Assembly: GCF_050920415.1 (NCBI RefSeq) | Contig: NZ_CP169309.1 | Direction: 5' to 3' (one strand) | DNA: 64,000 nt | Source: Escherichia coli | GTDB taxonomy: Bacteria; Pseudomonadota; Gammaproteobacteria; Enterobacterales; Enterobacteriaceae | In this document: in pieces, positions 19,700 to 62,540 of the stretch | Layout of the letters: every line of letters begins with the position of its first letter | Numbering within the stretch: the stretch's first letter is position 1 | The notes under the pieces: model-generated | Told to the model about the DNA's origin: nothing | The model's input: the letters and a program-made list of their open reading frames with translations, nothing else | The model's database searches: none | Translations under genes and position numbers: made by a program

Positions 19700-20614
19700 A
19701 TGTCAGCCAAAGTATGGGTTTTAGGGGATGCGGTTGTCGATCTCTTGCCTGAATCAGACGGGCGCCTACTGCCTTGTCCTGGCGGCGCGCCAGCTAACGT
19801 TGCGGTGGGAATCGCCAGATTAGGCGGAATAAGTGGGTTTATAGGCCGGGTGGGTGATGATCCTTTTGGCGCGTTAATGCAAAGAACGCTGCTAACGGAG
19901 GGAGTCGATATCACGTATCTGAAGCAGGATGAATGGCACCGAACATCCACGGTGCTTGTCGATCTGAACGATCAGGGGGAACGTTCATTTACGTTTATGG
20001 TCCGCCCTGGTGCCGATCTTTTTTTAGAGACGACTGACTTGCCCTTCTGGCGACATGGCGAATGGTTACATCTCTGTTCTATTGCGTTGTCTGCTGAACC
20101 TTCGCGTACCAGCGCATTTACTGCGATGACGGCGATCCGGCATGCCGGAGGTTTTGTCAGCTTCGATCCCAATATTCGTGAAGATCTGTGGCAAGACGAG
20201 CATTTGCTCCGCTTGTGTTTGCGACAGGCGCTACAACTGGCGGATGTCGTCAAGCTCTCGGAAGAAGAATGGCGACTTATCAGCGGAAAAACACAGAACG
20301 ATCGGGATATATGTGCTCTGGCAAAAGAGTATGAGATCGCCATGCTGTTGGTGACTAAAGGTGCAGAAGGGGTGGTGGTCTGTTATCGAGGACAAGTTCA
20401 CCATTTTGCTGGAATGTCTGTGAATTGTGTCGATAGCACGGGGGCGGGAGATGCGTTCGTTGCCGGGTTACTCACAGGTCTTTCCTCTACGGGATTAGAG
20501 ACCGATGAGAGAGAAATGCGACGAATTATCGATCTCGCTCAACGTTGTGGAGCGCTTGCAGTAACGGCGAAAGGGGCAATGACAGCGCTGCCATGTCGAC
20601 AAGATCTGGAATAG
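19700..20614 (+). CDS. cscK: fructokinase CscK (PfkB family)
   Basis: PfkB motifs GGAPANVA and DSTGAGDAF. Confidence 0.85.
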   Translation: MSAKVWVLGDAVVDLLPESDGRLLPCPGGAPANVAVGIARLGGISGFIGRVGDDPFGALMQRTLLTEGVDITYLKQDEWHRTSTVLVDLNDQGERSFTFMVRPGADLFLETTDLPFWRHGEWLHLCSIALSAEPSRTSAFTAMTAIRHAGGFVSFDPNIREDLWQDEHLLRLCLRQALQLADVVKLSEEEWRLISGKTQNDRDICALAKEYEIAMLLVTKGAEGVVVCYRGQVHHFAGMSVNCVDSTGAGDAFVAGLLTGLSSTGLETDEREMRRIIDLAQRCGALAVTAKGAMTALPCRQDLE

Positions 20615-20685
20615 TGAGAAATAAACGGCGAGGCCGTTCTTGTCTCTGAATAGGACGTGAATATTTTAACGACAGGCAGGTAATT

Positions 20686-21933
20686 ATGGCACTGAATATA
20701 CCATTCAGAAATGTGTACTATCGTTTTGCATCCAGTTACTCATTTCTCTTTTTTATTTCCTGGTCGCTGTGGTGGTCGTTATACGCTATTTGGCTGAAAG
20801 GACATCTAGGGTTGACTGGGACGGAATTAGGTACACTTTATTCGGTCAACCAGTTTACCAGTATTCTATTTATGATGGTCTACGGCATCGTCCAGGATAA
20901 ACTCGGTCTGAAGAAACCGCTTATCTGGTGTATGAGTTTCATCCTGGTCTTGACCGGACCGTTTATGATTTACGTTTATGAACCGTTACTGCAAAGCAAT
21001 TTTTCTGTAGGTCTAATTTTGGGGGCGCTCTTTTTTGGCTTGGGGTATCTGGCGGGCTGCGGTCTGCTTGATAGCTTCACCGAAAAAATGGCACGAAATT
21101 TTCATTTCGAATATGGAACAGCGCGCGCCTGGGGATCTTTTGGCTATGCGATTGGCGCGTTCTTTGCTGGCATATTTTTCAGTATCAGTCCCCATATCAA
21201 CTTCTGGTTGGTTTCGCTATTTGGCGCTGTATTTATGATGATCAACATGCGTTTTAAATATCAGGATCAGCAGTGCGTAGCGGCAGATGCGGGAGGGGTA
21301 AAAAAAGAGGATTTTATTGCAGTTTTCAAGGACCGAAACTTCTGGATTTTCGTCATATTTATTGTGGGGACGTGGTCTTTCTATAACATTTTTGATCAAC
21401 AGCTCTTTCCTGTTTTTTATGCAGGTTTATTCGAATCACACGATGTAGGAACGCGCCTGTATGGTTATCTCAACTCATTCCAGGTTGTACTCGAAGCGCT
21501 GTGCATGGCCATTATTCCTTTCTTTGTTAATCGGGTAGGGCCAAAAAATGCATTACTTATCGGTGTTGTGATTATGGCGTTGCGTATTCTTTCCTGCGCA
21601 CTGTTCGTTAATCCCTGGATTATTTCATTAGTGAAGCTTTTACATGCCATTGAGGTTCCACTGTGTGTCATTTCCGTCTTCAAATACAGCGTGGCAAACT
21701 TTGATAAACGCCTGTCGTCGACGATCTTTCTGATTGGTTTTCAAATTGCCAGTTCGTTGGGGATTGTGTTGCTTTCAACGCCGACTGGAATACTTTTTGA
21801 CCATGCAGGTTACCAGACGGTTTTCTTCGTAATTTCGGGTATTGTCTGCCTGATGTTGTTATTTGGCATTTTCTTCCTGAGTAAAAAACGTGAGCAAATG
21901 GTGATGGAAACGCCTGTACCTTCTGCAATATAG
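20686..21933 (+). CDS. cscB: sucrose:H+ symporter CscB (MFS, LacY-like)
   Basis: 415 aa 12-TMS MFS permease. Confidence 0.85.
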   Translation: MALNIPFRNVYYRFASSYSFLFFISWSLWWSLYAIWLKGHLGLTGTELGTLYSVNQFTSILFMMVYGIVQDKLGLKKPLIWCMSFILVLTGPFMIYVYEPLLQSNFSVGLILGALFFGLGYLAGCGLLDSFTEKMARNFHFEYGTARAWGSFGYAIGAFFAGIFFSISPHINFWLVSLFGAVFMMINMRFKYQDQQCVAADAGGVKKEDFIAVFKDRNFWIFVIFIVGTWSFYNIFDQQLFPVFYAGLFESHDVGTRLYGYLNSFQVVLEALCMAIIPFFVNRVGPKNALLIGVVIMALRILSCALFVNPWIISLVKLLHAIEVPLCVISVFKYSVANFDKRLSSTIFLIGFQIASSLGIVLLSTPTGILFDHAGYQTVFFVISGIVCLMLLFGIFFLSKKREQMVMETPVPSAI

Positions 21934-22363
21934 ACGTAAACTCTTTCCGGTTGTTGTCGATAGCTCTATATCCCTCAACCGGAAAATAATAATACCAAAA
22001 TGCTTAGCGCGGCTAATAATCGCCTAATCCAAACGCCTCATTCATGTTCTGGAACAGCCGCTCAAATGTACTCAGGATACGCGGTTCGCTGATTTCCAGG
22101 AAATTGTCGTAATTCAGCGACCTGTCCCGTGTATCACGGGCCTGCTAATCCATCAAGGAATGCATTGCGGAGTGAAGTATCGAGTCAAGCCAGATTTCGC
22201 GATCAGGATTCTGTGTGATGATTACATTGCCAGGCCCGGGGCTGTTTAGTCATCGCCGCACAGTGCTGAGATTTCAACCTGTTGCAGGGAAAATGAGTAG
22301 ATTTAGGGCAAGTGTGCTGCCAAACCCAACTTTTACGCGGGGAAGGTAGATTTCGTTGGAAGG

Positions 22364-22383
22364 ATAAATGGTGTCCCCTGCAG
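22364..22383. repeat. prophage att core, torI-proximal copy (ATAAATGGTGTCCCCTGCAG)
   Basis: Exact 20-bp direct repeat of 62521-62540, which covers the 3' end of argW. Confidence 0.8.
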
Positions 22384-22456
22384 ACATCTACTTGAAGCGA
22401 CAGGGGATTGATTGGAATGGTGTTTTTTAGATGTGAGAAATATTTTACCCGCTATT

Positions 22457-22657
22457 TTACCCATTGGCGCGGCTTAAGAGCTTATTTTTGAATTCACAAT
22501 GGTCACGATATAACCATCTTGCTCGCCCGTGGATAACTTTGGCTTTTGGCAGGTCGCCGGACTTAATCCGGTCATAGATGAAGGTTTTACCAAAGCCAGT
22601 ATCGGCCATGATGAATTTCAAATCAACCAGTGAATCAGGCTGTAGTTCGTGTTGCAT
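22457..22657 (-). CDS. torI: TorI-like excisionase / recombination directionality factor (AlpA-Xis family)
   Basis: 66 aa; recognised as KplE1 TorI; sits at prophage end opposite the integrase. Confidence 0.8.
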   Translation of the reverse strand: MQHELQPDSLVDLKFIMADTGFGKTFIYDRIKSGDLPKAKVIHGRARWLYRDHCEFKNKLLSRANG

Positions 22658-22702
22658 GAGTGCTATCTCCGAATAGGGAATCGAACCTGCAAATCAGGCA
22701 AT

Positions 22703-22722
22703 AAAAAACCGCATTGATGCGG
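22703..22722 (-). terminator. intrinsic terminator at the end of the early-left operon, just upstream of torI
   Basis: Reverse strand: CCGCA-TCAA-TGCGG hairpin followed by TTTTTTAT. Confidence 0.5.
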
Positions 22723-22782
22723 CGATGGTAGGTCTGGATATCATTGAGAAATGAACAGGCCTCATCGAGTGTGAGGCTGTGG

Positions 22783-23127
22783 TTAGTCCTTGCGTAACTC
22801 GCTAATTCTTCTGTAAGTCTCTGGTGCTTTGTTTCCGTGTATCTTCATTTCAGACTTCAACAGAGCAACGAGGGAATCCCATTCGTTGAGGATGCCTTTG
22901 AATGCCGGAACGCGCTTTGCAACCTTGTTGAATGAATCTCTGATTTCTGGAATCTGCTCAACAAGTGCAACGCATCGTCTGAAATCGGCTGCGTCATGGG
23001 GAGCGCCGAAGCTATGACCATAGATATTCTTTTTCAGTCCACATGCGATTGAGGCAAGAGTTGCGCTACTGATGCCAACATCGCCAGTCGATTGCCATTT
23101 CAAAACCTTCATAGCCAAATCTGACAT
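22783..23127 (-). CDS. hypothetical early-left (ea-region) protein, 114 aa
   Basis: ORF in leftward operon; no family recognised. Confidence 0.45.
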   Translation of the reverse strand: MSDLAMKVLKWQSTGDVGISSATLASIACGLKKNIYGHSFGAPHDAADFRRCVALVEQIPEIRDSFNKVAKRVPAFKGILNEWDSLVALLKSEMKIHGNKAPETYRRISELRKD

Positions 23128-23227
23128 TTCTTGTCTCCATAAAACAAAACTCGCCGTAGCGAGTTCAGATAAAATAAATCCCCGCGAGTGCGAGGATTGT
23201 TATTCACCTTTAACGGCAAGTTGCAGG

Positions 23228-23896
23228 TTAGCCACGGTTTACCTCCTGAGGCGGTTCTGCTGCAAAATACGCAATACCTTTATCCCAGATGGATTTAATG
23301 GTCGTCCACGTGACTGGTACTTTAATTTCAATCCGCCCGCTACCGTCACAGGTATCGCAATCATCATCGCCAAAGCATTCCGGGCAGCTGATAAACGTAG
23401 TTTCTGAAAATTCACCGGATAGCGCACCCTTAGCGCCGTTCTCGGCTGTTAGTCTCTTCGGCACCATGACCCAACCATCCGGAGTTACCGGAGAGTTGCC
23501 CGACAGCTCGTTCAACTTGTAAGTTTGGCTTACAGGTTCGGCTTCCAGTTCTGCTATGCGTTTTTTTGCTGCTTCCAGCTCAACACGCAGCCTCCCAACC
23601 GTTAGTGCAATATTCTCGTTCTCCTGGTCGCGGTGTTTGATGTATTGCTGGTTTCTTTCCCGTTCATCCAGCAGCGCCTGCACTACTTCAGGGTTGAAAG
23701 CTGCGATATAACGAGCGTTGTTCTCTGCGTTTTTCTGTCCATCAAAGCCGGTCCATTTGATAACGTCTTCACATCGTTTATCACCGGGCGTATGCACCGC
23801 ATACGTACCAGTACCCGGTGAAATAAATGCGGACCATTCGCCTTGTGTTGCCTTTTTTGCTATCTCACGCAGTGCCTGATAGTCAATCTTGCTCAC
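23228..23896 (-). CDS. Ea22-like protein; start moved to GTG at 23896 preceded by AAGGAGG
   Basis: Coiled-coil middle, Cys-rich C-terminus; strong SD before GTG; longer ORF to 23989 overlaps the upstream gene. Confidence 0.45.
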   Translation of the reverse strand: MSKIDYQALREIAKKATQGEWSAFISPGTGTYAVHTPGDKRCEDVIKWTGFDGQKNAENNARYIAAFNPEVVQALLDERERNQQYIKHRDQENENIALTVGRLRVELEAAKKRIAELEAEPVSQTYKLNELSGNSPVTPDGWVMVPKRLTAENGAKGALSGEFSETTFISCPECFGDDDCDTCDGSGRIEIKVPVTWTTIKSIWDKGIAYFAAEPPQEVNRG

Positions 23897-24200
23897 TGGC
23901 TGCCTCCTTTGCTGGGCTTTCGAACTTCTGAGTGGTTGTATCAAACTCAAGCAACTTAACCACGTCATCAAACAGGACATAATCGCCATCAGAATCTTCA
24001 GTCATGTCAGCGCCACAATCCTGACCGAACGAGTCACAACCATCCATATCAAGCTCGTATCGCTTGAGTTTTGCGATATTTGATAAATTCAGCGCCAGTA
24101 CAGCAAGGTCATAAACCTCGTCAGCGGTATACCCGGCACCATGCCCATACATTTCAATGCGGGATATGATTTCTTCTACACGTTGTTTTGTGATCGTCAT
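23883..24200 (-). CDS. hypothetical acidic protein, 105 aa
   Basis: ORF translationally coupled to neighbours. Confidence 0.45.
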   Translation of the reverse strand: MTITKQRVEEIISRIEMYGHGAGYTADEVYDLAVLALNLSNIAKLKRYELDMDGCDSFGQDCGADMTEDSDGDYVLFDDVVKLLEFDTTTQKFESPAKEAASEQD

Positions 24201-24742
24201 TTTTGCTCACCTCCCTGTTCTTCCAGAAAAATACGCATAGCCTCAAGCATCTCTTCGGTGTCATACGGTGACAACTTGTCACGCAGGATGTGCTCAATGC
24301 TGTTAATGAACTTGCGGATTGCTTTGCGTTCAATTTCAGCCAGGAAAGCATCGGTGGCTGGGGTGTCTGATTGCAGAGACTTTGCGCGATAGTCATTCCA
24401 CCCTCTTGCATACATGGGATTAACTTGCACTCCATCTTTTACGCAATATGCCTGCCCTCCACGGTTGATAACATTGATTTCGTCCATAGCGCCAGCCTTC
24501 AGCCCCGCATTCTCCGCCGCCAGCGCCGAAAACTTCTCGTGTGCCAACTTAACAGCTGCATCAGCCTGCTTAATTGACTCAATCGCTTTCTGGTGGTCTT
24601 CGTACAGAGCCGAAATCTTGGCCTCCGCTTCAGCAAATTTACGCACCAGATATTCAGCGTTTGTTTCGTTAACCTTTAAATCTCGGGGGATGCATTTACC
24701 TTTCAGAAATCCATCCATCTCAATTAGTGACATTTGTTTCAT
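24197..24742 (-). CDS. hypothetical protein, 181 aa
   Basis: ORF in leftward operon. Confidence 0.45.
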
Positions 24743-24903
24743 TTCTTCCCACTCCGCAACATCGCGTTCAGATATTTGTTTTGATTCACTGAAGGAAAAG
24801 AATTTCTCTTAAGCAATTCCTCTCTCGATGGCATTGGCTTTACGCGTTGGCGAATAATCATTTCTGCCGGAAGAATTCCGGGATTGTATGCAAGTCCTCT
24901 CAT
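24739..24903 (-). CDS. small hypothetical protein, 54 aa
   Basis: ATG preceded by AAGAGG; ATGA overlap with downstream gene; below ORF-track size cut-off. Confidence 0.3.
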
Positions 24904-24919
24904 GGTAAATTCCTCTTTG

Positions 24920-25234
24920 TTAATTTATTCGTATGCCTGTTCTCTCTTCATCAAGTTTTTTTAGCTTGTATCGCATAGCTCTTACTGAATAAATTGAGCG
25001 GCAGGTTGCAATTGCTATTTCTTCTGCGGAGAACTTACCGAAAAGTGATACTTCGGCTCTTGTCCAGCGTCTTCCACGAAGTCGGCTAACAATGTCAGCT
25101 CCAATCCTTGTTGCTTTCGCCATTACTGCTTTTTCAGTCCTTTCCAGTTTTTCAGCGATAACTTCAACTGGCATTGTCGCCGCCACTTCGCGCAAGAAAT
25201 CGACTTCCCATTTCTCCCATGGAGTCTTTTTCAT
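24920..25234 (-). CDS. hypothetical protein, 104 aa
   Basis: ORF in leftward operon. Confidence 0.45.
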
Positions 25235-25245
25235 AGGCGATACCG

Positions 25246-25734
25246 TTATTTGATAAGAAGTGAAGGTTTCCCAACTTTGAGTTGAGCGCCGGGGATATTT
25301 ATTCCTGCTTTTAGTTGGTGTTTGATTGCCAGTTTGTCGGCTTTAATTGTTGTTTCAAACTCAACGTATTCTGGAGGAAGGGCGCTTGAGTCGATGATTT
25401 CTACAGTTTCTGACGGTTTGCGGATTGTTACCTGGTGAATACCTGCTCGAATCTTTTTCTTTCCAACCATTTCAAGCGATGACGCTATATACGTCATAAT
25501 GCTATCAATCTTATTTTGAATTACTGCTGCTCTTTCATTCAGTGACTTTGCCTCTTCCTTGAGGCGTTCAGCATAACCAGACTCATTTTTAATAATGGCA
25601 AGAAGTTGCTCTATTTTATCGGTAAATTCTCCTTCCATGCCTTCTATTGTGTCAGCAATCATCTCTGGTTCTAAATCTGAATCCATCAATTTTGCGTATT
25701 CATTGGCAATTTCATACAGTTTGCTCACTGGCAA
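25246..25734 (-). CDS. Gp157-like protein (often found with RecT/Erf recombinases)
   Basis: 162 aa; position immediately downstream of recT-like gene; family call from memory. Confidence 0.4.
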   Translation of the reverse strand: MPVSKLYEIANEYAKLMDSDLEPEMIADTIEGMEGEFTDKIEQLLAIIKNESGYAERLKEEAKSLNERAAVIQNKIDSIMTYIASSLEMVGKKKIRAGIHQVTIRKPSETVEIIDSSALPPEYVEFETTIKADKLAIKHQLKAGINIPGAQLKVGKPSLLIK

Positions 25735-26623
25735 CCTCCAGTTTCGCTTTGCATTCTATGTAAATGGCTTGTACGTTCTGCTGCAATTTCATTCCAGATG
25801 TCAGGCGATATGCTTCTGCAAAATATCGCTTCAAATCATCCATGTTTTCTGCCTGAGCCATTTCATCGCAAAGAAGTTGTGCTTTATCCATTATTTCCTG
25901 CTGGCGTTTCCGTTCATCTTCGCGGATATCTTCCTCTGATTTGTGCGGCATAACTGGTTCAGTCCATACACCTTCTTCTTCGTTTAGTACGTGAATAGCA
26001 CTATCAAGACGTGATGCCTTAGGCCAATACTTGCTTGCACGCTTCACGACCGTCTTTCGCGCCATCTCATTCCAGTGATTTACCCATGGTCCTTTATCGC
26101 TGAATGCCGCCTTGCTTGTTTTCCTTACAGCCTCAATTTCAGCAATACTCATCTCTTCCGTTAGATAATCACCTGCCGGCGTCTTAACTGTGCAGTAAAC
26201 GCCAACGATATCACCACGATCACCGAAGGCGTTGTATTTATGGGTTGGTGCTTTATCAAGCCCGTTTGACTCATAGGTATCGTTAGCATGAACAAGTTTT
26301 GCCTGACCCCATGAGATAACACCAGACTCCATTGCAATATGGAGCAATCCCATATAGCTGATATCAAGGCAAACCATGCCGTCGCGCGGAACCAGATAAG
26401 CCAGTTTGCTGGCCGGGTTTAAGGTGATGCCGATCGCCGCAACATTGATGATGGCGTTCTGTGCGCTGGTTGGATTTGCCAGTGCTGTTTTAGCCAGGTA
26501 ATCATTTTTCTGGAAATACTGAATTGCAAACTGGCTTTCCTTAGCCCATGTCACCGTCTGTTCAGTCAATGCTCCGCAGAATAACTGCTCCTGCTGTTTA
26601 ACGAATTCAACGATATTGCTCAT
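25712..26623 (-). CDS. RecT-family single-strand annealing recombinase
   Basis: 303 aa; motif GPWVNHWNEMARKTVVKRASKYWP resembles RecT GPWVTHWEEMAKKTAIRRLFKYLP. Confidence 0.7.
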   Translation of the reverse strand: MSNIVEFVKQQEQLFCGALTEQTVTWAKESQFAIQYFQKNDYLAKTALANPTSAQNAIINVAAIGITLNPASKLAYLVPRDGMVCLDISYMGLLHIAMESGVISWGQAKLVHANDTYESNGLDKAPTHKYNAFGDRGDIVGVYCTVKTPAGDYLTEEMSIAEIEAVRKTSKAAFSDKGPWVNHWNEMARKTVVKRASKYWPKASRLDSAIHVLNEEEGVWTEPVMPHKSEEDIREDERKRQQEIMDKAQLLCDEMAQAENMDDLKRYFAEAYRLTSGMKLQQNVQAIYIECKAKLEVASEQTV

Positions 26624-26931
26624 GCAGCTTCTCCATAAATATGTCTGCGTTTGAATATTGCGAAGGCATATTCAGCCTTAACTCTTTCGGTTATTGCATC
26701 CCAGAACCATTCAGCGGCTTTTTCCTGATAGTTACAGTCATCATCTTCCAGCCAGTCGATAGCGTCCTTAGTATGTTCATCTGGTTTATATGAGCGAAGC
26801 ATTTCGCTTATTGGGTCGCAACGTTTGCAGAGGCGATCAACTTCACTGTTGATTCGTTCGTAATCTTCATCAGTAAAACTTGCGATTATTTGCGATATTT
26901 CACGCTTATCATTCAGAGTCAGAATCATCAT
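26620..26931 (-). CDS. hypothetical protein at the gam/arf position, 103 aa
   Basis: ORF between kil-like and recT-like genes. Confidence 0.4.
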   Translation of the reverse strand: MMILTLNDKREISQIIASFTDEDYERINSEVDRLCKRCDPISEMLRSYKPDEHTKDAIDWLEDDDCNYQEKAAEWFWDAITERVKAEYAFAIFKRRHIYGEAA

Positions 26932-27012
26932 CTTTCTCCTGTTCTTTGTGCTGATTGAGCATTTTGTTCATCTGACGAATGAATTCTTCGTCTGACCAGT
27001 TATCTGTAAAAC

Positions 27013-27165
27013 TCATTTCCTGCGATACCACGGAAGATTGATGGCTGATTTCATCGCTTTATTTGCTTCAAGCCACATTTTTGAATCACCAATAAATCTG
27101 GCTATTACTGCTTTGTTCTGTGCAGCACGAAGCATCTGGTGATTAATGGCTATTTCATTGCGCAT
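27013..27165 (-). CDS. kil: Kil-like small protein (candidate FtsZ inhibitor)
   Basis: 50-aa ORF with GGAGG SD; ARFIGDSKMWLEA resembles remembered lambda Kil motif; below ORF-track cut-off. Confidence 0.4.
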   Translation of the reverse strand: MRNEIAINHQMLRAAQNKAVIARFIGDSKMWLEANKAMKSAINLPWYRRK

Positions 27166-27284
27166 AACGCCTCCATTTGTTTCTTTGCTGCTCTGATTAA
27201 TTGTTTAACTCGGCGTGATAATTCAGATTCGTGCGGGTAGAAAGCGGACATGACGCCGCTACCCGCGAGCTGAAAGTGCATCAT
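27150..27284 (-). CDS. CIII-like small protein (candidate FtsH/HflB inhibitor)
   Basis: 44-aa ORF with AAGGAG SD; central ESELSRRVKQLIRAAKK resembles lambda CIII helix ESLLERITRKL. Confidence 0.35.
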   Translation of the reverse strand: MMHFQLAGSGVMSAFYPHESELSRRVKQLIRAAKKQMEALCAMK

Positions 27285-27374
27285 GGGTAACTCCTTATAT
27301 TTGATTGCATAACGAAAACGCCTCGAGTGAAGCGTTATTGGTATGCGGTAAAGCCGCCAACAGGCGGCTATTTG

Positions 27375-27608
27375 CTATTGATTCTTTTCAAGAACATCAA
27401 TGATGTCGTCCGGGTTGTCTCCGTTGTCTTCACAAAATGCTTCGAATTCAGCCCATTTCGCGCTGATAAAATCAATTACTCTCATTAATTCGTATTCCAT
27501 ATTTTTCTCCAGACCAAAAGAATGCCGCCCATATAGAGCGGCAAGACTATCAAGGAATGATTTCCAATAATCAGAACAAGTCGGCTCCTGTTTAGTTACG
27601 AGCGACAT
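27375..27608 (-). CDS. hypothetical acidic protein, 77 aa (ral/ea10 position)
   Basis: ORF between N-like and cIII-like genes. Confidence 0.4.
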   Translation of the reverse strand: MSLVTKQEPTCSDYWKSFLDSLAALYGRHSFGLEKNMEYELMRVIDFISAKWAEFEAFCEDNGDNPDDIIDVLEKNQ

Positions 27609-27769
27609 TGCTCCGTGTATTCACTCGTTGGAATGAATACACAGTGCAGTGTTTATTAGTATGCCTGTCTTTTAACCACATCAGGCTCGGTGGTTCTCGT
27701 GTACCCCTACAGCGAGAAATCGGATAAACTCTATTCACCCCCTACAGAGAGAATGATGGAGATTCACCG

Positions 27770-28309
27770 ATGAGTAACTGGTGGCAGGAACTGTTACGTT
27801 TCTTCCTGCGTGGTCTTACGCTACAACAGTTAATTCATATGCTTATTATTTTAATTGCCCTGATAATAATCACCCCAGCATCAATTAAAGAGTGGGTAGA
27901 TATAAGGAACCCCGAAATACTTCCAGATCACTGGATGTATTACGCAATGCTTTTGTGTATCAGTTATGTTCTGAACAGGGTGATGGAGTTTATATTTCTG
28001 GCATCTTCAGACAGATATAAAAAATATCTCAGTAAGAGAGATGAGGATAAAGTAATTGTGGAGACTGAGCGCCTGTTCAATTCTCTGAGTATTCAGGAAA
28101 AAGAGGTTTTAGCATTTGCTGTTATGGCAAATAACAAAATCGTACTTAAGCACGGCGATCCGGTCGCTTTATCTCTTATGAGAAAAGGCCTTCTCCATCG
28201 CTCAGGTGTGACTTACAGCGCGTCAGGTAAAGAGAAATTTGTTATACCTGACGTCTGGTTCCATGAGTGTTATATGCGCTTTGCTGGTAAAGCTGATGAG
28301 CTAATTTAG
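27770..28309 (+). CDS. sieB: SieB-like superinfection exclusion membrane protein
   Basis: 179 aa; two N-terminal TM helices; adjacent to N; family assignment from memory. Confidence 0.5.
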   Translation: MSNWWQELLRFFLRGLTLQQLIHMLIILIALIIITPASIKEWVDIRNPEILPDHWMYYAMLLCISYVLNRVMEFIFLASSDRYKKYLSKRDEDKVIVETERLFNSLSIQEKEVLAFAVMANNKIVLKHGDPVALSLMRKGLLHRSGVTYSASGKEKFVIPDVWFHECYMRFAGKADELI

Positions 28310-28330
28310 TTCCTCGACGGCGGGGTATCG

Positions 28331-28714
28331 TCATCTCGCCGTCAGTTGTTTTGATTTCCGGTAGCCTGCTGCGTAAAGAGCTACATTTGGAAGACATACA
28401 CCAGTTTCTGGTTGCTTATGTCCAAACTCATTCGCGTACACAATGGCCGCTCTCTCCAGATTGCGTCTGTATTCTTTCTGTTGCCAGATCACGTCCTGTG
28501 CCATGAACTTAATTGGCTTAGCGTCTTCTATGCGCTCAGGCGTTTCGTGAGTACCTTTAGCCTGAATCTGCGCTCTGCTTAGAGTAGGGCGGTGTAATAC
28601 TTCTGAACTTATTGCTTCTTCGCGGGCCAGTACGCCGTTAGCTAATGCCTTTGCCTTTAAACGCTCACGACGACGAGAACGTGAATTGCCTTTGAACTGA
28701 GTTCTGCGTGTCAT
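28331..28714 (-). CDS. N-like antitermination protein (P22 gp24 type)
   Basis: Arg-rich N-terminus RRTQFKGNSRSRRRER; C-terminus LPNVALYAAGYRKSKQLTAR; downstream of pL/nutL. Confidence 0.7.
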   Translation of the reverse strand: MTRRTQFKGNSRSRRRERLKAKALANGVLAREEAISSEVLHRPTLSRAQIQAKGTHETPERIEDAKPIKFMAQDVIWQQKEYRRNLERAAIVYANEFGHKQPETGVCLPNVALYAAGYRKSKQLTAR

Positions 28715-28879
28715 ATAGACCTCCTGATGAACTTTGGTGGTGTGGTAGGTGGGAGACCCATTTCGACCTGTTTCGGCCTACTTCAATTCGGCAATAGTCC
28801 CGCAGGCCTCGCCGCTTTACGTGCGACATATTCCCGTCCATGAACCCTTCACCACACCCCAAAGTTCACTTTGGTTATT

Positions 28880-28894
28880 GCGCTTTGTCAGCGC
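28880..28894 (-). promoter_or_regulatory. nutL boxB-like hairpin (reverse strand GCGCTGACAAAGCGC)
   Basis: 5-bp stem / 5-nt loop between pL and N; matches remembered P22-type boxB. Confidence 0.5.
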
Positions 28895-28962
28895 CGTAGA
28901 TTCATATTCGAATCGTTGTATATTCACCGCCCTGGTGAGTAGTGCGTCCTGCTGATGTGTTT

Positions 28963-29025
28963 AGTATCACCGCCAGTGGTATTTATGTCAACACCGCCAG
29001 AGATAATTTATCACCGCAGATGGTT
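28963..29025 (-). promoter_or_regulatory. pL promoter with OL1-OL2-OL3 operators
   Basis: TATCACCGCCAGTGGTA (28965-28981), CAACACCGCCAGAGATA (28989-29005), TATCACCGCAGATGGTT (29009-29025); reverse-strand -35 TTGACA and -10 GATACT. Confidence 0.75.
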
Positions 29026-29182
29026 ATCTGTATGTTTTTTATATAGATTTATTTTTTTGCAGGGGTGTGTGGCTTGGGAGGTGATCGAGAGATCTGAATT
29101 GCGATGTTTAGTGAGTTGTATCTATTAATTTTCAAATAAATACAATTGGTTATGTGTTATTGGGTGAAGGGGATCGTGAGGC

Positions 29183-29208
29183 AAAGAAAACCCGGCGCTG
29201 AGGCCGGG
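29183..29208 (-). terminator. intrinsic terminator ending the cI-orfA-orfB operon
   Basis: Reverse strand: CCCGGC-loop-GCCGGG hairpin followed by TTTTCTTT, 8 bp after orfB stop. Confidence 0.55.
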
Positions 29209-29215
29209 TTGTGTG

Positions 29216-29587
29216 TTACTTAAGAACGAGTCCGTTTAAGGCATCAAGGATTTTGGAAACATAACTTCCAAAAATGTAGGCGCAAAATGCGAACACGAAA
29301 CTGACAACGACCGCAGATGCCTTGATGGTGATTTTTGCTGAGCTAATGCTTGTCTCAATACCTGACAGACGAGAATCTACAGATTTTATATCTGACTTTA
29401 CTTCAGCGAGATCGCGCTTGATGTATTCAACATCAGACTCTAGCTTTGCAACTCTAGCCTCAAGCATGTTACCTCCGCCGTTTCCTCCACCATGCCGTGA
29501 GTATGCATCATCAGTGGAATAGTGTCCAATTGGGCGAGATATGTTTTGATTTGGACGAAGCTGAGCAACCTTGTTATCTAAACTCAT
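29216..29587 (-). CDS. rex-slot cassette gene B: small protein with Gly-rich segment, coiled coil and C-terminal TM helix
   Basis: 123 aa; GGGNGGGN, heptad-like LEARVAKLESDVEYIKRDLAEVKSDIKSVDSRL, hydrophobic AVVVSFVFAFCAYIFGSYV; overlaps gene A by 14 bp; resembles XhlA-type architecture from memory. Confidence 0.55.
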   Translation of the reverse strand: MSLDNKVAQLRPNQNISRPIGHYSTDDAYSRHGGGNGGGNMLEARVAKLESDVEYIKRDLAEVKSDIKSVDSRLSGIETSISSAKITIKASAVVVSFVFAFCAYIFGSYVSKILDALNGLVLK

Positions 29588-30011
29588 CGCGAACTGATCC
29601 TGTTATCTTCACGTCAAAAAACGAACTTTTTACATCAATTACTTCGCCTTTATCAGGATTAACCAGTGATGCTCTAACTTCGAATATCCCAGGCTTGATA
29701 ATTTTCACCCTTGGGAAGTTAATTCTCATAGAAGTTGATACGATGGTTTCTCCATCGTTGGCTTCTGCTACCGTAAAAAACTTATGGTTGGAGTACAGTT
29801 TTGTGTCAATTGGTATCGGTATTTCTTGAGCATTGAAAACCTCAATGCCTATGGAATATTTTTTTGTAGCCTTAAGGCCGATAAAAAAAGCGCCAAATGA
29901 TAGATCCACTTCATGGGAGTCTTTATCCATTTCATAGATAAGAACTGGAGTTACTGGGTTGCCTTCATCCATCGCAATCGGAATGATATAAGAAATACGT
30001 TCTTTAATCAT
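29574..30011 (-). CDS. rex-slot cassette gene A: hypothetical soluble protein, 145 aa
   Basis: ATG 7 nt after cI stop on same strand; AT-rich; no family recognised. Confidence 0.55.
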   Translation of the reverse strand: MIKERISYIIPIAMDEGNPVTPVLIYEMDKDSHEVDLSFGAFFIGLKATKKYSIGIEVFNAQEIPIPIDTKLYSNHKFFTVAEANDGETIVSTSMRINFPRVKIIKPGIFEVRASLVNPDKGEVIDVKSSFFDVKITGSVRDEFR

Positions 30012-30018
30012 TTACGTG

Positions 30019-30735
<717 letters not shown>

Positions 30736-30742
30736 TTAAATC

Positions 30743-30806
30743 TATCACCGCAAGGGATAAATATCTAACACCGTGCGTGTTGACTGTTTTACCTCTAGCG
30801 GTGATA
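30743..30806. promoter_or_regulatory. OR3-OR2-OR1 operators with pRM/pR
   Basis: TATCACCGCAAGGGATA, TAACACCGTGCGTGTTG, TACCTCTAGCGGTGATA; -35 TTGACT and -10 GATAAT for pR. Confidence 0.8.
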
Positions 30807-30832
30807 ATGGTTGCATGTACTAAGGAGGTTGT

Positions 30833-31033
30833 ATGGAACAACGCATAACCCTGAAAGATTATGCAATGCGCTTTGGGCAAACCAAGACAGCTAAAGATCT
30901 CGGTGTATATCAAAGCGCGATCAACAAGGCCATTCATTCAGGCCGAAATATTTTTTTAACTATAAACGCTGATGGAAGCGTTTATGCGGAAGAGGTAAAG
31001 CCCTTCCCAAGTAACAAAAAAACAACTGCATAA
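30833..31033 (+). CDS. cro: Cro repressor, lambda type
   Basis: 66 aa, near-identical to remembered lambda Cro. Confidence 0.9.
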
Positions 31034-61206: not shown

Positions 61207-62400
61207 TCACTCCACCTTTTCATCAATCCAATCCGCCCACCACTGCATCATTTCTCTGCGCTTATCGAGATACTGAGCATGGTTGTAAATTCCGCGCACA
61301 GATCCGCCGTTGGCATGTGCCAGTTGCACTTCAATAGCATCAGCAGGCCATTCGTGCTCGTTCATAATCGTGCTGAATTCATGCCTGAATCCGTGACCGC
61401 TTTCCAGACCTTCATAGCCGATTTGTTTGATCACAAGCAGTACCGCGTTCTCGCAGATTGGCTTCTTCTTATCGTTGCGCCCGGCAAAAACAAACTCTGA
61501 TACTGGTTTGGTGATTGAGCTTAGCGTAGTGAGAAGTTCAACCACCTGGTCCGACATCGGGACAACATGAATCTTGCGTCCCTTCATCACACTGGCGTCG
61601 ATAGTGATAATCCTGTTTTCAAAATCGACGTTCTTCCATTGCATGGAACGAAGCTCTTTCGTTCTTAGGGCTGTGTAGCGTAAAACTTTGGTCGCAATGA
61701 GCGATACGATACTTCCTGAAAATGTTGCCAGTGCTTTGTTGAATGCAGGGATCTGGTCTGCAGGAAGAAACGGGAAGTTCTTCTTGCGGTATCCCTTCAT
61801 GGCGTCAGCAAGGTCAGGTGCCGGGTTATATTTAGCCCTTCCGGTGACAATAGCGTAACGGAAAACCTCGCCGCATCTTCTGCGTGCTTTGTTGGCTCGC
61901 TCCATTGCACCGCGATCTTCAAATCTGCGGATTACTTCCAGAAGTTGCATCGGCTCAATATCCTGAATTTCAAGGCTGCCGATGATAGGTAAAATGTCGT
62001 CATCAAACATTTTGGCAAGTTCAGTTGCATAGCCTACTGACCAGACTTGCTTCTTGTGCTCGTACCATTCCTTGTAAATCGCACTAAAGGAATTGTTGTT
62101 AGACGAAGCCTTTTTCGCCTTTACCGGATCGATACCAACCGAGATGTCTTTCCTCGCAGTCCATGCTTTATCCCTTGCCTCCTGCAAAGTCATAAGCGGA
62201 TATTTTCCGACGGTCAGGATTTTCTCCTTACCGTCAATCTTGTAGCGAAGCTGCCATACCTTTTTCCCTGACACAGGGACATAAAGGTACAGGCCATTAC
62301 CATCGAGAAGGCGGTATGGTTTTTCTTTCGGCTTTGCTGCTTCAATCTGCTTAACGGTGAGCATGGGTAAAAATCCGGTGGGTAAAATTATTTTATCCAC
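61207..62400 (-). CDS. intS: tyrosine integrase (IntS / KplE1-Sf6 type); likely start is the internal ATG at 62364
   Basis: C-terminal catalytic signature R..HGFRHEFST..Y; adjacent to argW. Confidence 0.9.
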   Translation of the reverse strand: MDKIILPTGFLPMLTVKQIEAAKPKEKPYRLLDGNGLYLYVPVSGKKVWQLRYKIDGKEKILTVGKYPLMTLQEARDKAWTARKDISVGIDPVKAKKASSNNNSFSAIYKEWYEHKKQVWSVGYATELAKMFDDDILPIIGSLEIQDIEPMQLLEVIRRFEDRGAMERANKARRRCGEVFRYAIVTGRAKYNPAPDLADAMKGYRKKNFPFLPADQIPAFNKALATFSGSIVSLIATKVLRYTALRTKELRSMQWKNVDFENRIITIDASVMKGRKIHVVPMSDQVVELLTTLSSITKPVSEFVFAGRNDKKKPICENAVLLVIKQIGYEGLESGHGFRHEFSTIMNEHEWPADAIEVQLAHANGGSVRGIYNHAQYLDKRREMMQWWADWIDEKVE

Positions 62401-62520
62401 TTTTTACCCGTCATGGTGTGCGGCTGTCAACGATCTGACGCGAACCATGACGAACTGTGAATCTACGGAAGGCTTGATATTCAGGGGATTTTGCGGACTG
62501 GTACGGATGGGAGCGAACTG

Positions 62521-62540
62521 ATAAATGGTGTCCCCTGCAG
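62521..62540. repeat. prophage att core, integrase/argW-proximal copy
   Basis: Exact repeat of 22364-22383. Confidence 0.8.

Follow-up and report, generated by a model that had tools for sequence, protein, structure and literature searches.

Organisation of the gene block

The window analysed here, a stretch of 64,000 nucleotides (nt) from the Escherichia coli contig NZ_CP169309.1, carries a prophage, and at positions 22783-25234, between the TorI-type excisionase gene (xis) and the RecT/Gp157 module of this prophage, lies a block of six small open reading frames (ORFs), all on the minus strand. Named from the xis side, they are orf1 (22783-23127, 114 amino acids (aa)), orf2 (23228-23896, 222 aa, with a GTG start), orf3 (23883-24200, 105 aa), orf4 (24197-24742, 181 aa), orf5 (24739-24903, 54 aa) and orf6 (24920-25234, 104 aa). 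The coding density of the block is 95%, and no seventh gene is present within 22783-25234. Read in the direction of transcription, the Gp157 gene and orf6 are separated by an 11-nt gap and orf6 and orf5 by a 16-nt gap with an AGAGGA ribosome-binding site; orf5 and orf4, and likewise orf4 and orf3, share an ATGA stop/start overlap, and orf3 and orf2 overlap by 14 nt. The last gene, orf1, is uncoupled, with a 100-nt spacer (23128-23227) before it and a 125-nt spacer after it. The mechanical ORF for orf2 is 253 aa long; its start was placed at GTG 23896 because AAGGAGG stands six bases upstream of this codon, the residue encoded by it is exactly where the Pfam Ead_Ea22 match begins, and independent gene callers also give a protein of 222 aa.

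A sequence-only reading of this stretch had described tightly packed, translationally coupled small ORFs of these sizes between torI and the recombination module of a lambdoid phage. Our results agree with it on the placement within a lambdoid early-left operon, on the gene sizes and on the tight packing; the coupling applies to orf6 through orf2 and not to orf1, which is set apart behind tandem terminators.

All six small genes are real. The exact sequences of all six proteins are already present in public databases, each protein matches a PHROG profile (E = 4.5e-23 to 4.7e-67), and in 12 public contigs, one of them an apparently complete phage genome, independent gene calls gave the same nine genes, RecT through xis, in the same arrangement. 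Purifying selection acts on five of the six frames: in a comparison of the window with distinct alleles of related loci, the ratio of nonsynonymous to synonymous polymorphism (pN/pS) was 0.14 for orf1, 0.25 for orf3, 0.31 for orf4, 0.14 for orf5 and 0.08 for orf6, as compared to 0.09 for Gp157 and 0.08 for RecT, all these values being rough and the alleles compared with the window non-independent; orf2 has no value, its sole comparable allele being identical. The small sizes, the lack of functional annotations and the rarity of the chimeric orf2 allele, which is the one member of its 90%-identity cluster, might suggest that the prophage is decaying and that not all of the ORFs are genes, some being open by chance. 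This idea is contradicted by the low pN/pS of five genes, the PHROG E-values, the ribosome-binding sites and start-stop overlaps, the identical gene calls in the 12 contigs, and the confident fold of orf1 and moderately confident fold of orf6 described below, and we give it next to no credence. The plus-strand antisense ORFs (e.g. 23072-23407 and 24414-24812) were regarded as by-products of the minus-strand genes and were dismissed because the substitution pattern fits the minus-strand frames. A search of the NCBIfam library with the block proteins returned nothing meaningful, and an Rfam scan of 21900-31000 (E <= 1) gave no match, so that the block and its surroundings hold no small RNA or riboswitch of a known family.

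The early-left operon of a P22-like prophage

The prophage is about 40.2 kb long, P22-like (Lederbergvirus), has a lambda-type immunity and is integrated at argW. Its att core is a 21-bp direct repeat, GATAAATGGTGTCCCCTGCAG, found at 22363-22383 and at 62520-62540, where the second copy overlaps tRNA-Arg(CCT). The genomes nearest to it are those of the Lederbergvirus phages 611R6, Kapi1 and Gally. The immunity region consists of lambda-type cI (30019-30732) and cro (30833-31033), and a PL-like promoter, TTGACA-17-GATACT, was located by a promoter scan on the minus strand at 28963-28991 (10/12 matches). From PL, the gene order is an N-type antiterminator gene (28331-28714, minus strand; Pfam N_peptide, E = 9.8e-16), SieB, cIII, Kil, a 103-aa gene, RecT (25712-26623, minus strand; Pfam PF03837, E = 5.8e-32), the Mu Gam-like Sipho_Gp157 gene (25246-25734, minus strand; Pfam PF05565, E = 1.2e-36), the block and xis, and all of these genes run leftward except SieB, which is on the plus strand. 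The excisionase is a TorI/HkaC-type protein of 66 aa (22457-22657, minus strand; phrog_66 'excisionase'), and the homologous genes in phages 611R6 and Kapi1 carry the annotation excisionase. Because the genes follow one another in the order cI/cro, PL, N, recombination genes, block and xis, the block was placed in the distal early-left operon, and it very probably represents the 'ea' (early accessory) segment at the distal end of this operon, in a prophage of the P22-like podovirus type.

The tyrosine integrase gene (int, 61207-62400) lies at the other end of the prophage. On a 37-kb metagenomic phage contig with the same genes (locus L089), int directly follows xis and is itself followed by a tailspike gene; therefore, attP lies between xis and int in the phage genome. 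The position of xis and int at opposite prophage ends with attP between them is that of KplE1/HK620-type elements.

No sigma-70-like promoter was found on the minus strand within the block by a consensus scan. A pattern scan detected two tandem intrinsic-terminator-like hairpins, both with a U-run behind the stem, in the orf2-orf1 spacer (23147-23198, minus strand). The predicted RNA fold of 23136-23205 has an energy of -25.3 kcal/mol (z = -5.9), which was equalled by none of 200 shuffled sequences, and this terminator segment is 98.6% identical in Kapi1 and 88.8% identical in Gally, where the flanking genes are different. Two further terminator-like hairpins occur on the same strand in the orf1-xis spacer (22708-22777; hairpins at 22777-22759 and 22723-22708; z = -2.8), the second of which is canonical, with GCCGCAUCAAUGCGGU followed by UUUUUUAU.

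From this layout the following course of expression may be proposed. In the lysogen, PL would be repressed by cI and the block would be silent. Upon induction or infection, transcription would begin at PL, and the polymerase, modified by the N-type antiterminator, would traverse kil, cIII, RecT and Gp157 and then orf6, orf5, orf4, orf3 and orf2, these five genes being translated as a coupled string. Only N-modified polymerase would cross the tandem terminators to reach orf1 and, after two more terminators, xis, attP and int; the restriction of this read-through to N-modified transcription is proposed by analogy. Kapi1_009, the Kapi1 homologue of orf5, is not expressed in lysogens (PMC12922286).

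Relation to the ea region of P22 and the exo-xis region of lambda

The block is the region named 'ea' in P22 and 'exo-xis' in lambda. In the P22 record the order is erf, abc1, abc2, orf56, eaE, orf45, eaF, eaD, eaI, eaA, eaG, eaC and xis. The window shares with the P22 ea region the operon, the strand and the position between the recombination module and xis, as well as the succession of a helix-turn-helix (HTH) protein, an Orf56/DUF2737 protein, an EaE-like protein, a protein with the EaA N-terminal module, an EaD/Ea22-type protein and xis; both regions are mosaic, with functions likewise unknown. Judged by these sequence comparisons, the recognisable pieces are ordered as in P22, whereas the content is different. 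The window has RecT plus Gp157 and no Abc2, whereas P22 has Erf, Arf and Abc2; orf1 has no P22 counterpart, orf2 ends in a zinc-knuckle C-terminal domain, and orf3 is a short acidic protein while P22 EaA is a three-domain protein. The window also differs in its TorI/HkaC-type excisionase, in the attP between xis and int, and in its lambda-type immunity. A BLAST search against the P22 ea-region proteins found no match for orf1 or orf6.

The likeness to the exo-xis region of lambda and Shiga toxin (Stx) phages lies in the position between the recombination genes and xis on the early PL transcript, and in orf2, which shares the N-terminal and coiled-coil part of lambda Ea22 (IPR025153 / PF13935). 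The window differs from the lambda exo-xis region by lacking orf60a, orf61, orf63, orf73 and ea8.5.

The statement of the sequence-only reading that only one of the proteins resembles a known family could not be upheld, since orf2 belongs to Ead_Ea22, orf5 to DUF2737/P22 Orf56, orf6 is a tandem HTH protein, orf3 and orf4 share EaA/EaE modules, orf1 is a member of a very large unnamed family, and all six proteins fall into PHROG families. The peptide orf5 is very basic (isoelectric point (pI) 11) and matches Pfam PF10930 (DUF2737) over positions 1-53 of 53 (E = 3.4e-32, 110.5 bits, cut-off 25); it is 77% identical to P22 orf56 and is thus a DUF2737 peptide homologous to P22 Orf56. A literature search on DUF2737 found no paper.

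The protein encoded by orf6, directly after RecT-Gp157, is basic (pI 10) and carries two copies of the motif W-x2-E...FL...IA-x2-L-x-RS-x2-(A/S)V, which is present three times in longer relatives (151-153 aa). Sigma70_r4_2 is matched by nine of 12 family members, and the AlphaFold model, made as a Gly-Ser fusion with orf3, consists of two three-helix bundles with a predicted local distance difference test (pLDDT) score of 72-88. Because of the motif repeats, the Sigma70_r4_2 matches and the three-helix bundles, orf6 was read as a tandem HTH protein, and the model suggests a small Myb/GcrA-like protein with predicted DNA-binding activity. The likeness of the fold to GcrA, Myb, SANT and homeodomain proteins rests on this moderately confident fusion-construct model; orf6 has no Pfam GcrA or Myb match and, unlike GcrA, lacks the sigma-70-binding C-terminal domain. 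Its gene follows the recombinase module immediately, which is the place of abc1 after erf in P22, and Abc1 is similarly small (94 aa as compared to 104 aa), basic and HTH-containing; the Gally record annotates the orf6 homologue as 'similar to P22 Abc1'. The partner modules differ, RecT/Gp157 for orf6 and Erf/Abc2 for Abc1. Abc1 is an HTH protein which aids recombination, with a molecular function that is unknown, and which triggers a P4-dependent cell-death response (10.1101/2023.04.06.535777, PMC12315714). Orf6 would probably act with the recombination and anti-RecBCD module, or as an early regulator.

Orf4 is predicted to be helical with coiled coils and matches phrog_614 (E = 9e-62) and phrog_583. 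It consists of an N-terminal module (phrog_583) and an EaE-like C-terminal part with a 10-residue motif, and these N and C parts are found separately in related loci. By BLAST, it has a weak match to P22 EaE, 33% identity over 72 aa including the 10-residue motif, at E = 7e-4 in a 20-protein database. Its homologues (cluster members P0033-P0046) are widely named 'hNH endonuclease' in NCBI records. An HNH endonuclease was rejected for orf4, as no HNH family was found in Pfam at E <= 10 or in NCBIfam, and the sequence has no H-N-H pattern and no Cys pairs; orf4 has no Pfam family, and the name is probably a propagated mis-annotation.

Orf3 is acidic (pI 4.1, net charge -15) and matches phrog_3126 at E = 4.7e-67. 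Its first ~45 aa are a module which also opens P22 EaA and DUF550/DUF551 proteins, and its C-terminal part is unique to the orf3 family. In an alignment with four EaA-family proteins nine positions were invariant, eight of them in the N-terminal module (M1, T2, T4, R7, E16, E28, A33 and L37), and the BLAST match to EaA is restricted to 37 aa at the N-terminus. There were 269 orf3 homologues, and among the 120 matches listed all were at least 81% identical. Two 115-aa homologues, P0258 and P0301, end in '...SNHNHHFINGTCVECLKSE' without the acidic tail; these ends seem to stem from fusion to a Cys/His-containing gene downstream, or from read-through into it.

Several points weigh against the assignment of the block to a P22-like ea segment as set out above. 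The links of orf4 to EaE and of orf3 to EaA appear weak by sequence and cover parts of the proteins, and AlphaFold gave no confident model for orf3 (pLDDT 29-50). For homology between orf6 and Abc1, BLAST found no match at E <= 1, and hhalign gave a weak alignment with 24% probability and P = 8e-4 over 68 columns. The pN/pS estimates, with their roughness and the missing value for orf2, belong here too. The read-through of four terminators is assumed by analogy with lambda and P22, and the timing of expression of the block in this prophage, as well as every biochemical role of the six proteins, is something we infer.

Domain shuffling in orf2 and mosaicism of the block

That the block holds an Ea22-like gene, as claimed from sequence, was borne out by orf2, which matches Pfam PF13935 (Ead_Ea22) well above the gathering score (E = 1e-36, 127 bits, cut-off 27) over profile positions 1-115 and whose N-terminus is 45% identical to P22 EaD over 119 aa by BLAST. 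The Ead_Ea22 N-terminal domain is followed by a coiled coil, the linker 'SGNSPVTPDGW' and a C-terminal domain with CxxC...CxxCxGxG. This C-terminal domain bears CPECFGDDDCDTCDGSGR, which reads as a DnaJ/Anti-TRAP-like zinc knuckle, and its match to Pfam Anti-TRAP is weak (E = 0.047). It has no relation to its counterpart in lambda Ea22, a mixed alpha-beta dimer of solved structure; a PDB sequence search with orf2 (E <= 1) gave chance matches only and did not match that domain. Ea22 proteins have been described as mosaics in which a constant N-terminus and coiled coil are combined with C-terminal domains that vary, DUF551 among them (PMC10834534), and orf2 fits this description.

The linker is encoded by a conserved 30-nt junction ('GNSPVTPDGW', 23471-23500, minus strand), which is 93-97% identical in three otherwise unrelated phage segments. 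Across other loci, the zinc-knuckle domain occurs behind four different N-terminal parts, and the linker joins it to three N-terminal parts other than that of orf2, namely an EaA-N plus pyrophosphohydrolase part (L011) and two unrelated sequences (L074 and L083); the same GNSPVTPDGW linker leads into DUF551 in L023, L025 and L042. The junction is a linker at which the N- and C-terminal modules of ea-region proteins recombine. Orf2 is most likely an Ea22-type coiled-coil oligomer which would present a variable C-terminal domain, here the zinc knuckle, to a host partner. A tetramer and a pro-lysogenic effect have been reported for the Ea22 proteins of lambda and Stx phages (PMC7093339, PMC10834534).

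Since ea22 is reported to favour lysogeny despite its high sequence diversity and other exo-xis genes to favour lysis (PMC7093339, PMC3824215), the genes of the block might be lysis-lysogeny modulators in the style of lambda exo-xis, which tune the frequency of lysogenisation and the efficiency of induction and do not act on host defences. The position of the block in the exo-xis region and the bona fide Ead_Ea22 membership of orf2 fit this idea. However, orf2 is the sole protein of the block with a homologue in the lambda exo-xis set, its C-terminal domain is unlike that of lambda and the reported phenotypes are modest, and relatives of orf1 also occur in virulent phages, which make no such decision; on balance this reading is rather unlikely.

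None of the phage records and none of the complete E. coli genomes in RefSeq covers at least 80% of the block, although parts of it are held by 3,143 of 5,426 complete E. coli genomes. Among 80 IMG/VR loci, each covering up to 3 kb to either side of an orf3 homologue of 84-100% identity, orf3 was accompanied by orf5 in 42, by the N module of orf4 in 40, by the C part of orf4 in 38, by the C-terminal domain of orf2 in 8, by orf1 in 11 and by the RecT-Gp157-orf6 trio in 13-14; an Ea22-type N domain, mostly 33-57% identical, lay downstream of orf3 in 46. The complete gene set of the block recurs in a single one of these loci (L009). At the nucleotide level, comparison with four phages showed islands of 30-130 nt with 85-98% identity between otherwise unrelated segments, and each gene of the block is absent from many related, apparently complete phages. 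The genes are probably dispensable, and they may be regarded as individually exchangeable modules from a shared lambdoid gene pool, which would be rebuilt by recombination at short conserved junctions into a different combination in each prophage. The early-left operons of P22-like phages are known to be highly mosaic, with functions mostly unknown (PMC2629481, PMC8022706), and the shuffling seen here is of the kind already described for these operons and for Ea22 proteins (PMC2629481, PMC8022706, PMC10834534).

The large unnamed family of orf1

The product of orf1, the final gene ahead of xis, is basic (pI 9.4), and the gene has a GGAG ribosome-binding site of its own. When 1.84 billion representatives were searched with HMMER, at least 1,875 clusters at 50% identity fell into the orf1 family (E <= 1e-3), whose members are stand-alone proteins, N- or C-terminal domains of longer ones, or tandem duplications. 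Residues G18, S20, P43, D45, D48, R51, C52 and W83 are invariant, and the family motif is composed of G, SS, P-x-D-x-x-D-x-x-R-C and W. No Pfam model was matched by orf1 or by 67 diverse relatives, and a PDB sequence search with orf1 and with the family profile gave chance matches only. The structure-based search that the sequence-only reading had called for yielded a confident all-helical AlphaFold model (68 sequences; pLDDT 96.4, predicted template modelling score 0.89) with seven helices around a conserved loop, for which a structure search of the PDB found no analogue. A search of the BFVD with orf1 returned uncharacterised relatives only, including Clavibacter phage and giant virus proteins.

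Orf1 is present in 279 phage records and in 939 of 5,426 complete E. coli genomes, about one in six, and its family is spread over lambdoid, Mu-like, 9NA-like, Vibrio and actinobacterial phages. In phage 434 it lies directly upstream of xis; in a Yersinia phage the domain is fused and adjoins the exonuclease VIII gene; in the Mu-like SuMu a relative lies in the early region; in Vibrio phages relatives occur among small early genes, including a Lar-like restriction-alleviation gene; and in a 9NA-like virulent phage a relative adjoins an RdgC-like gene. Most of the distant relatives are on contigs too short to inform on context.

A distant domain of the orf1 family is found at the C-terminus of a CCA-adding/poly(A) polymerase-HD enzyme of 558 aa (P0409, locus L006 37-1713). 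This fusion is a single case on a 1.9-kb metagenomic contig, an isolated hint at a possible link to tRNA or RNA repair. Public chimeras join part of orf1 to Erf, Kil, Ea22 or a dATP/dGTP pyrophosphohydrolase domain (P0090, P0093, P0105, P0110 and P0127), which suggests frequent deletions and recombination joining neighbouring early-left genes.

The two terminator-like hairpins on either side of orf1, including those downstream that are expected of a moron, its own ribosome-binding site and its presence independent of its neighbours (11 of the 80 loci) raise the question whether orf1 is a moron, i.e., a terminator-insulated gene expressed by itself from the resident prophage and of benefit to the lysogen through lysogenic conversion or exclusion. 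Against this, the consensus scan found no sigma-70-like site on the minus strand in the upstream spacer 23128-23227, orf1 has the same orientation as the operon, its relatives lie inside early operons of virulent and transposable phages, and the upstream terminator cassette is kept in Kapi1 between other genes. A promoter-bearing moron was rejected provisionally for lack of a promoter-like site in the spacer, and we consider the moron reading very improbable. As a gene of the early operon, delivered at the end of the antiterminated transcript, orf1 may stand for a family that is a new class of host-factor or defence inhibitor, a proposal which is speculative and for now unlikely.

Possible functions of the block proteins

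The expectation that the functions of these genes would be largely unknown was confirmed, and the ORFs do not all belong to characterised families with housekeeping roles in the phage. The acidic orf3, the coiled-coil orf4 and the new helical fold of orf1 would most likely bind host or phage proteins and would not be catalysts.

It had also been suggested that this region typically carries host-takeover and anti-defence genes. This found no direct support, as no characterised defence or counter-defence protein was matched, and the suggestion draws on general knowledge. Read as a counter-defence or host-takeover cassette, the block would encode at least one protein that acts against host immunity, for instance against abortive infection, restriction or a RecBCD-linked system, or that shuts off host functions soon after infection. 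This reading narrows the ea-segment explanation and does not compete with the operon assignment; we regard it as a tentative possibility. It is consistent with the position of the block beside a recombination and nuclease-inhibitor module, like that of abc1/abc2 and ral in P22, with the rapid turnover of modules that is typical of arms-race genes, with the reported enrichment of counter-defence genes in accessory regions of enterobacterial phages (10.1101/2023.04.06.535777), and with the relatives of orf1 near the Lar-like gene in Vibrio phages and the RdgC-like gene in the 9NA-like phage. The net charge of -15 over the 105 aa of orf3 is a trait of DNA-mimic inhibitors, but the mimicry idea is based on charge alone. 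On the other side, a PDB sequence search with orf1-4 and orf6 gave no match to a solved anti-defence protein, no dedicated anti-defence profile library being used, and orf1 has no structural match in the PDB. PADLOC 2.0 gave no significant match for any of the six proteins, its sole row being orf4 against SngA at 16.8 bits with 0 stretches passing. None of the 39 supplements of a 200-gene accessory-gene screen (10.1101/2023.04.06.535777) contains the N-terminal peptide of any of the six.

Other features of the prophage

The prophage is a hybrid, with cI, cro and PL of the lambda type and closest whole-region relatives among the P22-like podoviruses, and its N-type antiterminator ends in a P22 gp24-like C-terminus. 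The left att site is flanked by the sucrose genes cscK and cscB (19700-21933), directly beside it, which puts the prophage into the argW-csc region of an Escherichia chromosome.

Two minus-strand genes lie at 29216-30011 directly downstream of cI, in the slot of lambda rexA-rexB. One encodes a protein of 145 aa (phrog_5893) with no Pfam or PADLOC match, and the other a protein of 123 aa (phrog_6136) with a weak XhlA-like match at residues 42-88 and a C-terminal hydrophobic stretch; a strong terminator-like hairpin (29210-29189) follows the two genes. They may be an exclusion or defence pair expressed in the lysogen and absent from PADLOC 2023.

Downstream of sieB, a strong terminator-like hairpin (27523-27543, 8 pairs, 6 of them G-C) lies within a 77-aa ORF (27375-27608, minus strand), whose PHROG family match is restricted to residues 36-75. 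The true start of the gene may thus lie further downstream, with the hairpin as a possible tL1-like terminator of the early-left operon.

Significance

A mosaic run of small genes such as this one is ordinary and is present in every P22-like or lambdoid prophage, and the six proteins were already known to databases as hypothetical proteins. What has been gained is the correction of the misnaming of orf4, the fold-level assignment of orf6 and a case in which domains are clearly seen to be exchanged at a junction of 30 nt. The only lead that could be worth experiments is orf1, and it is a modest one: the protein has no Pfam family and no structural relative, and it is found in phages of several bacterial phyla. 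Should the block contain a new factor for host takeover or counter-defence, orf1 would be the best first candidate.

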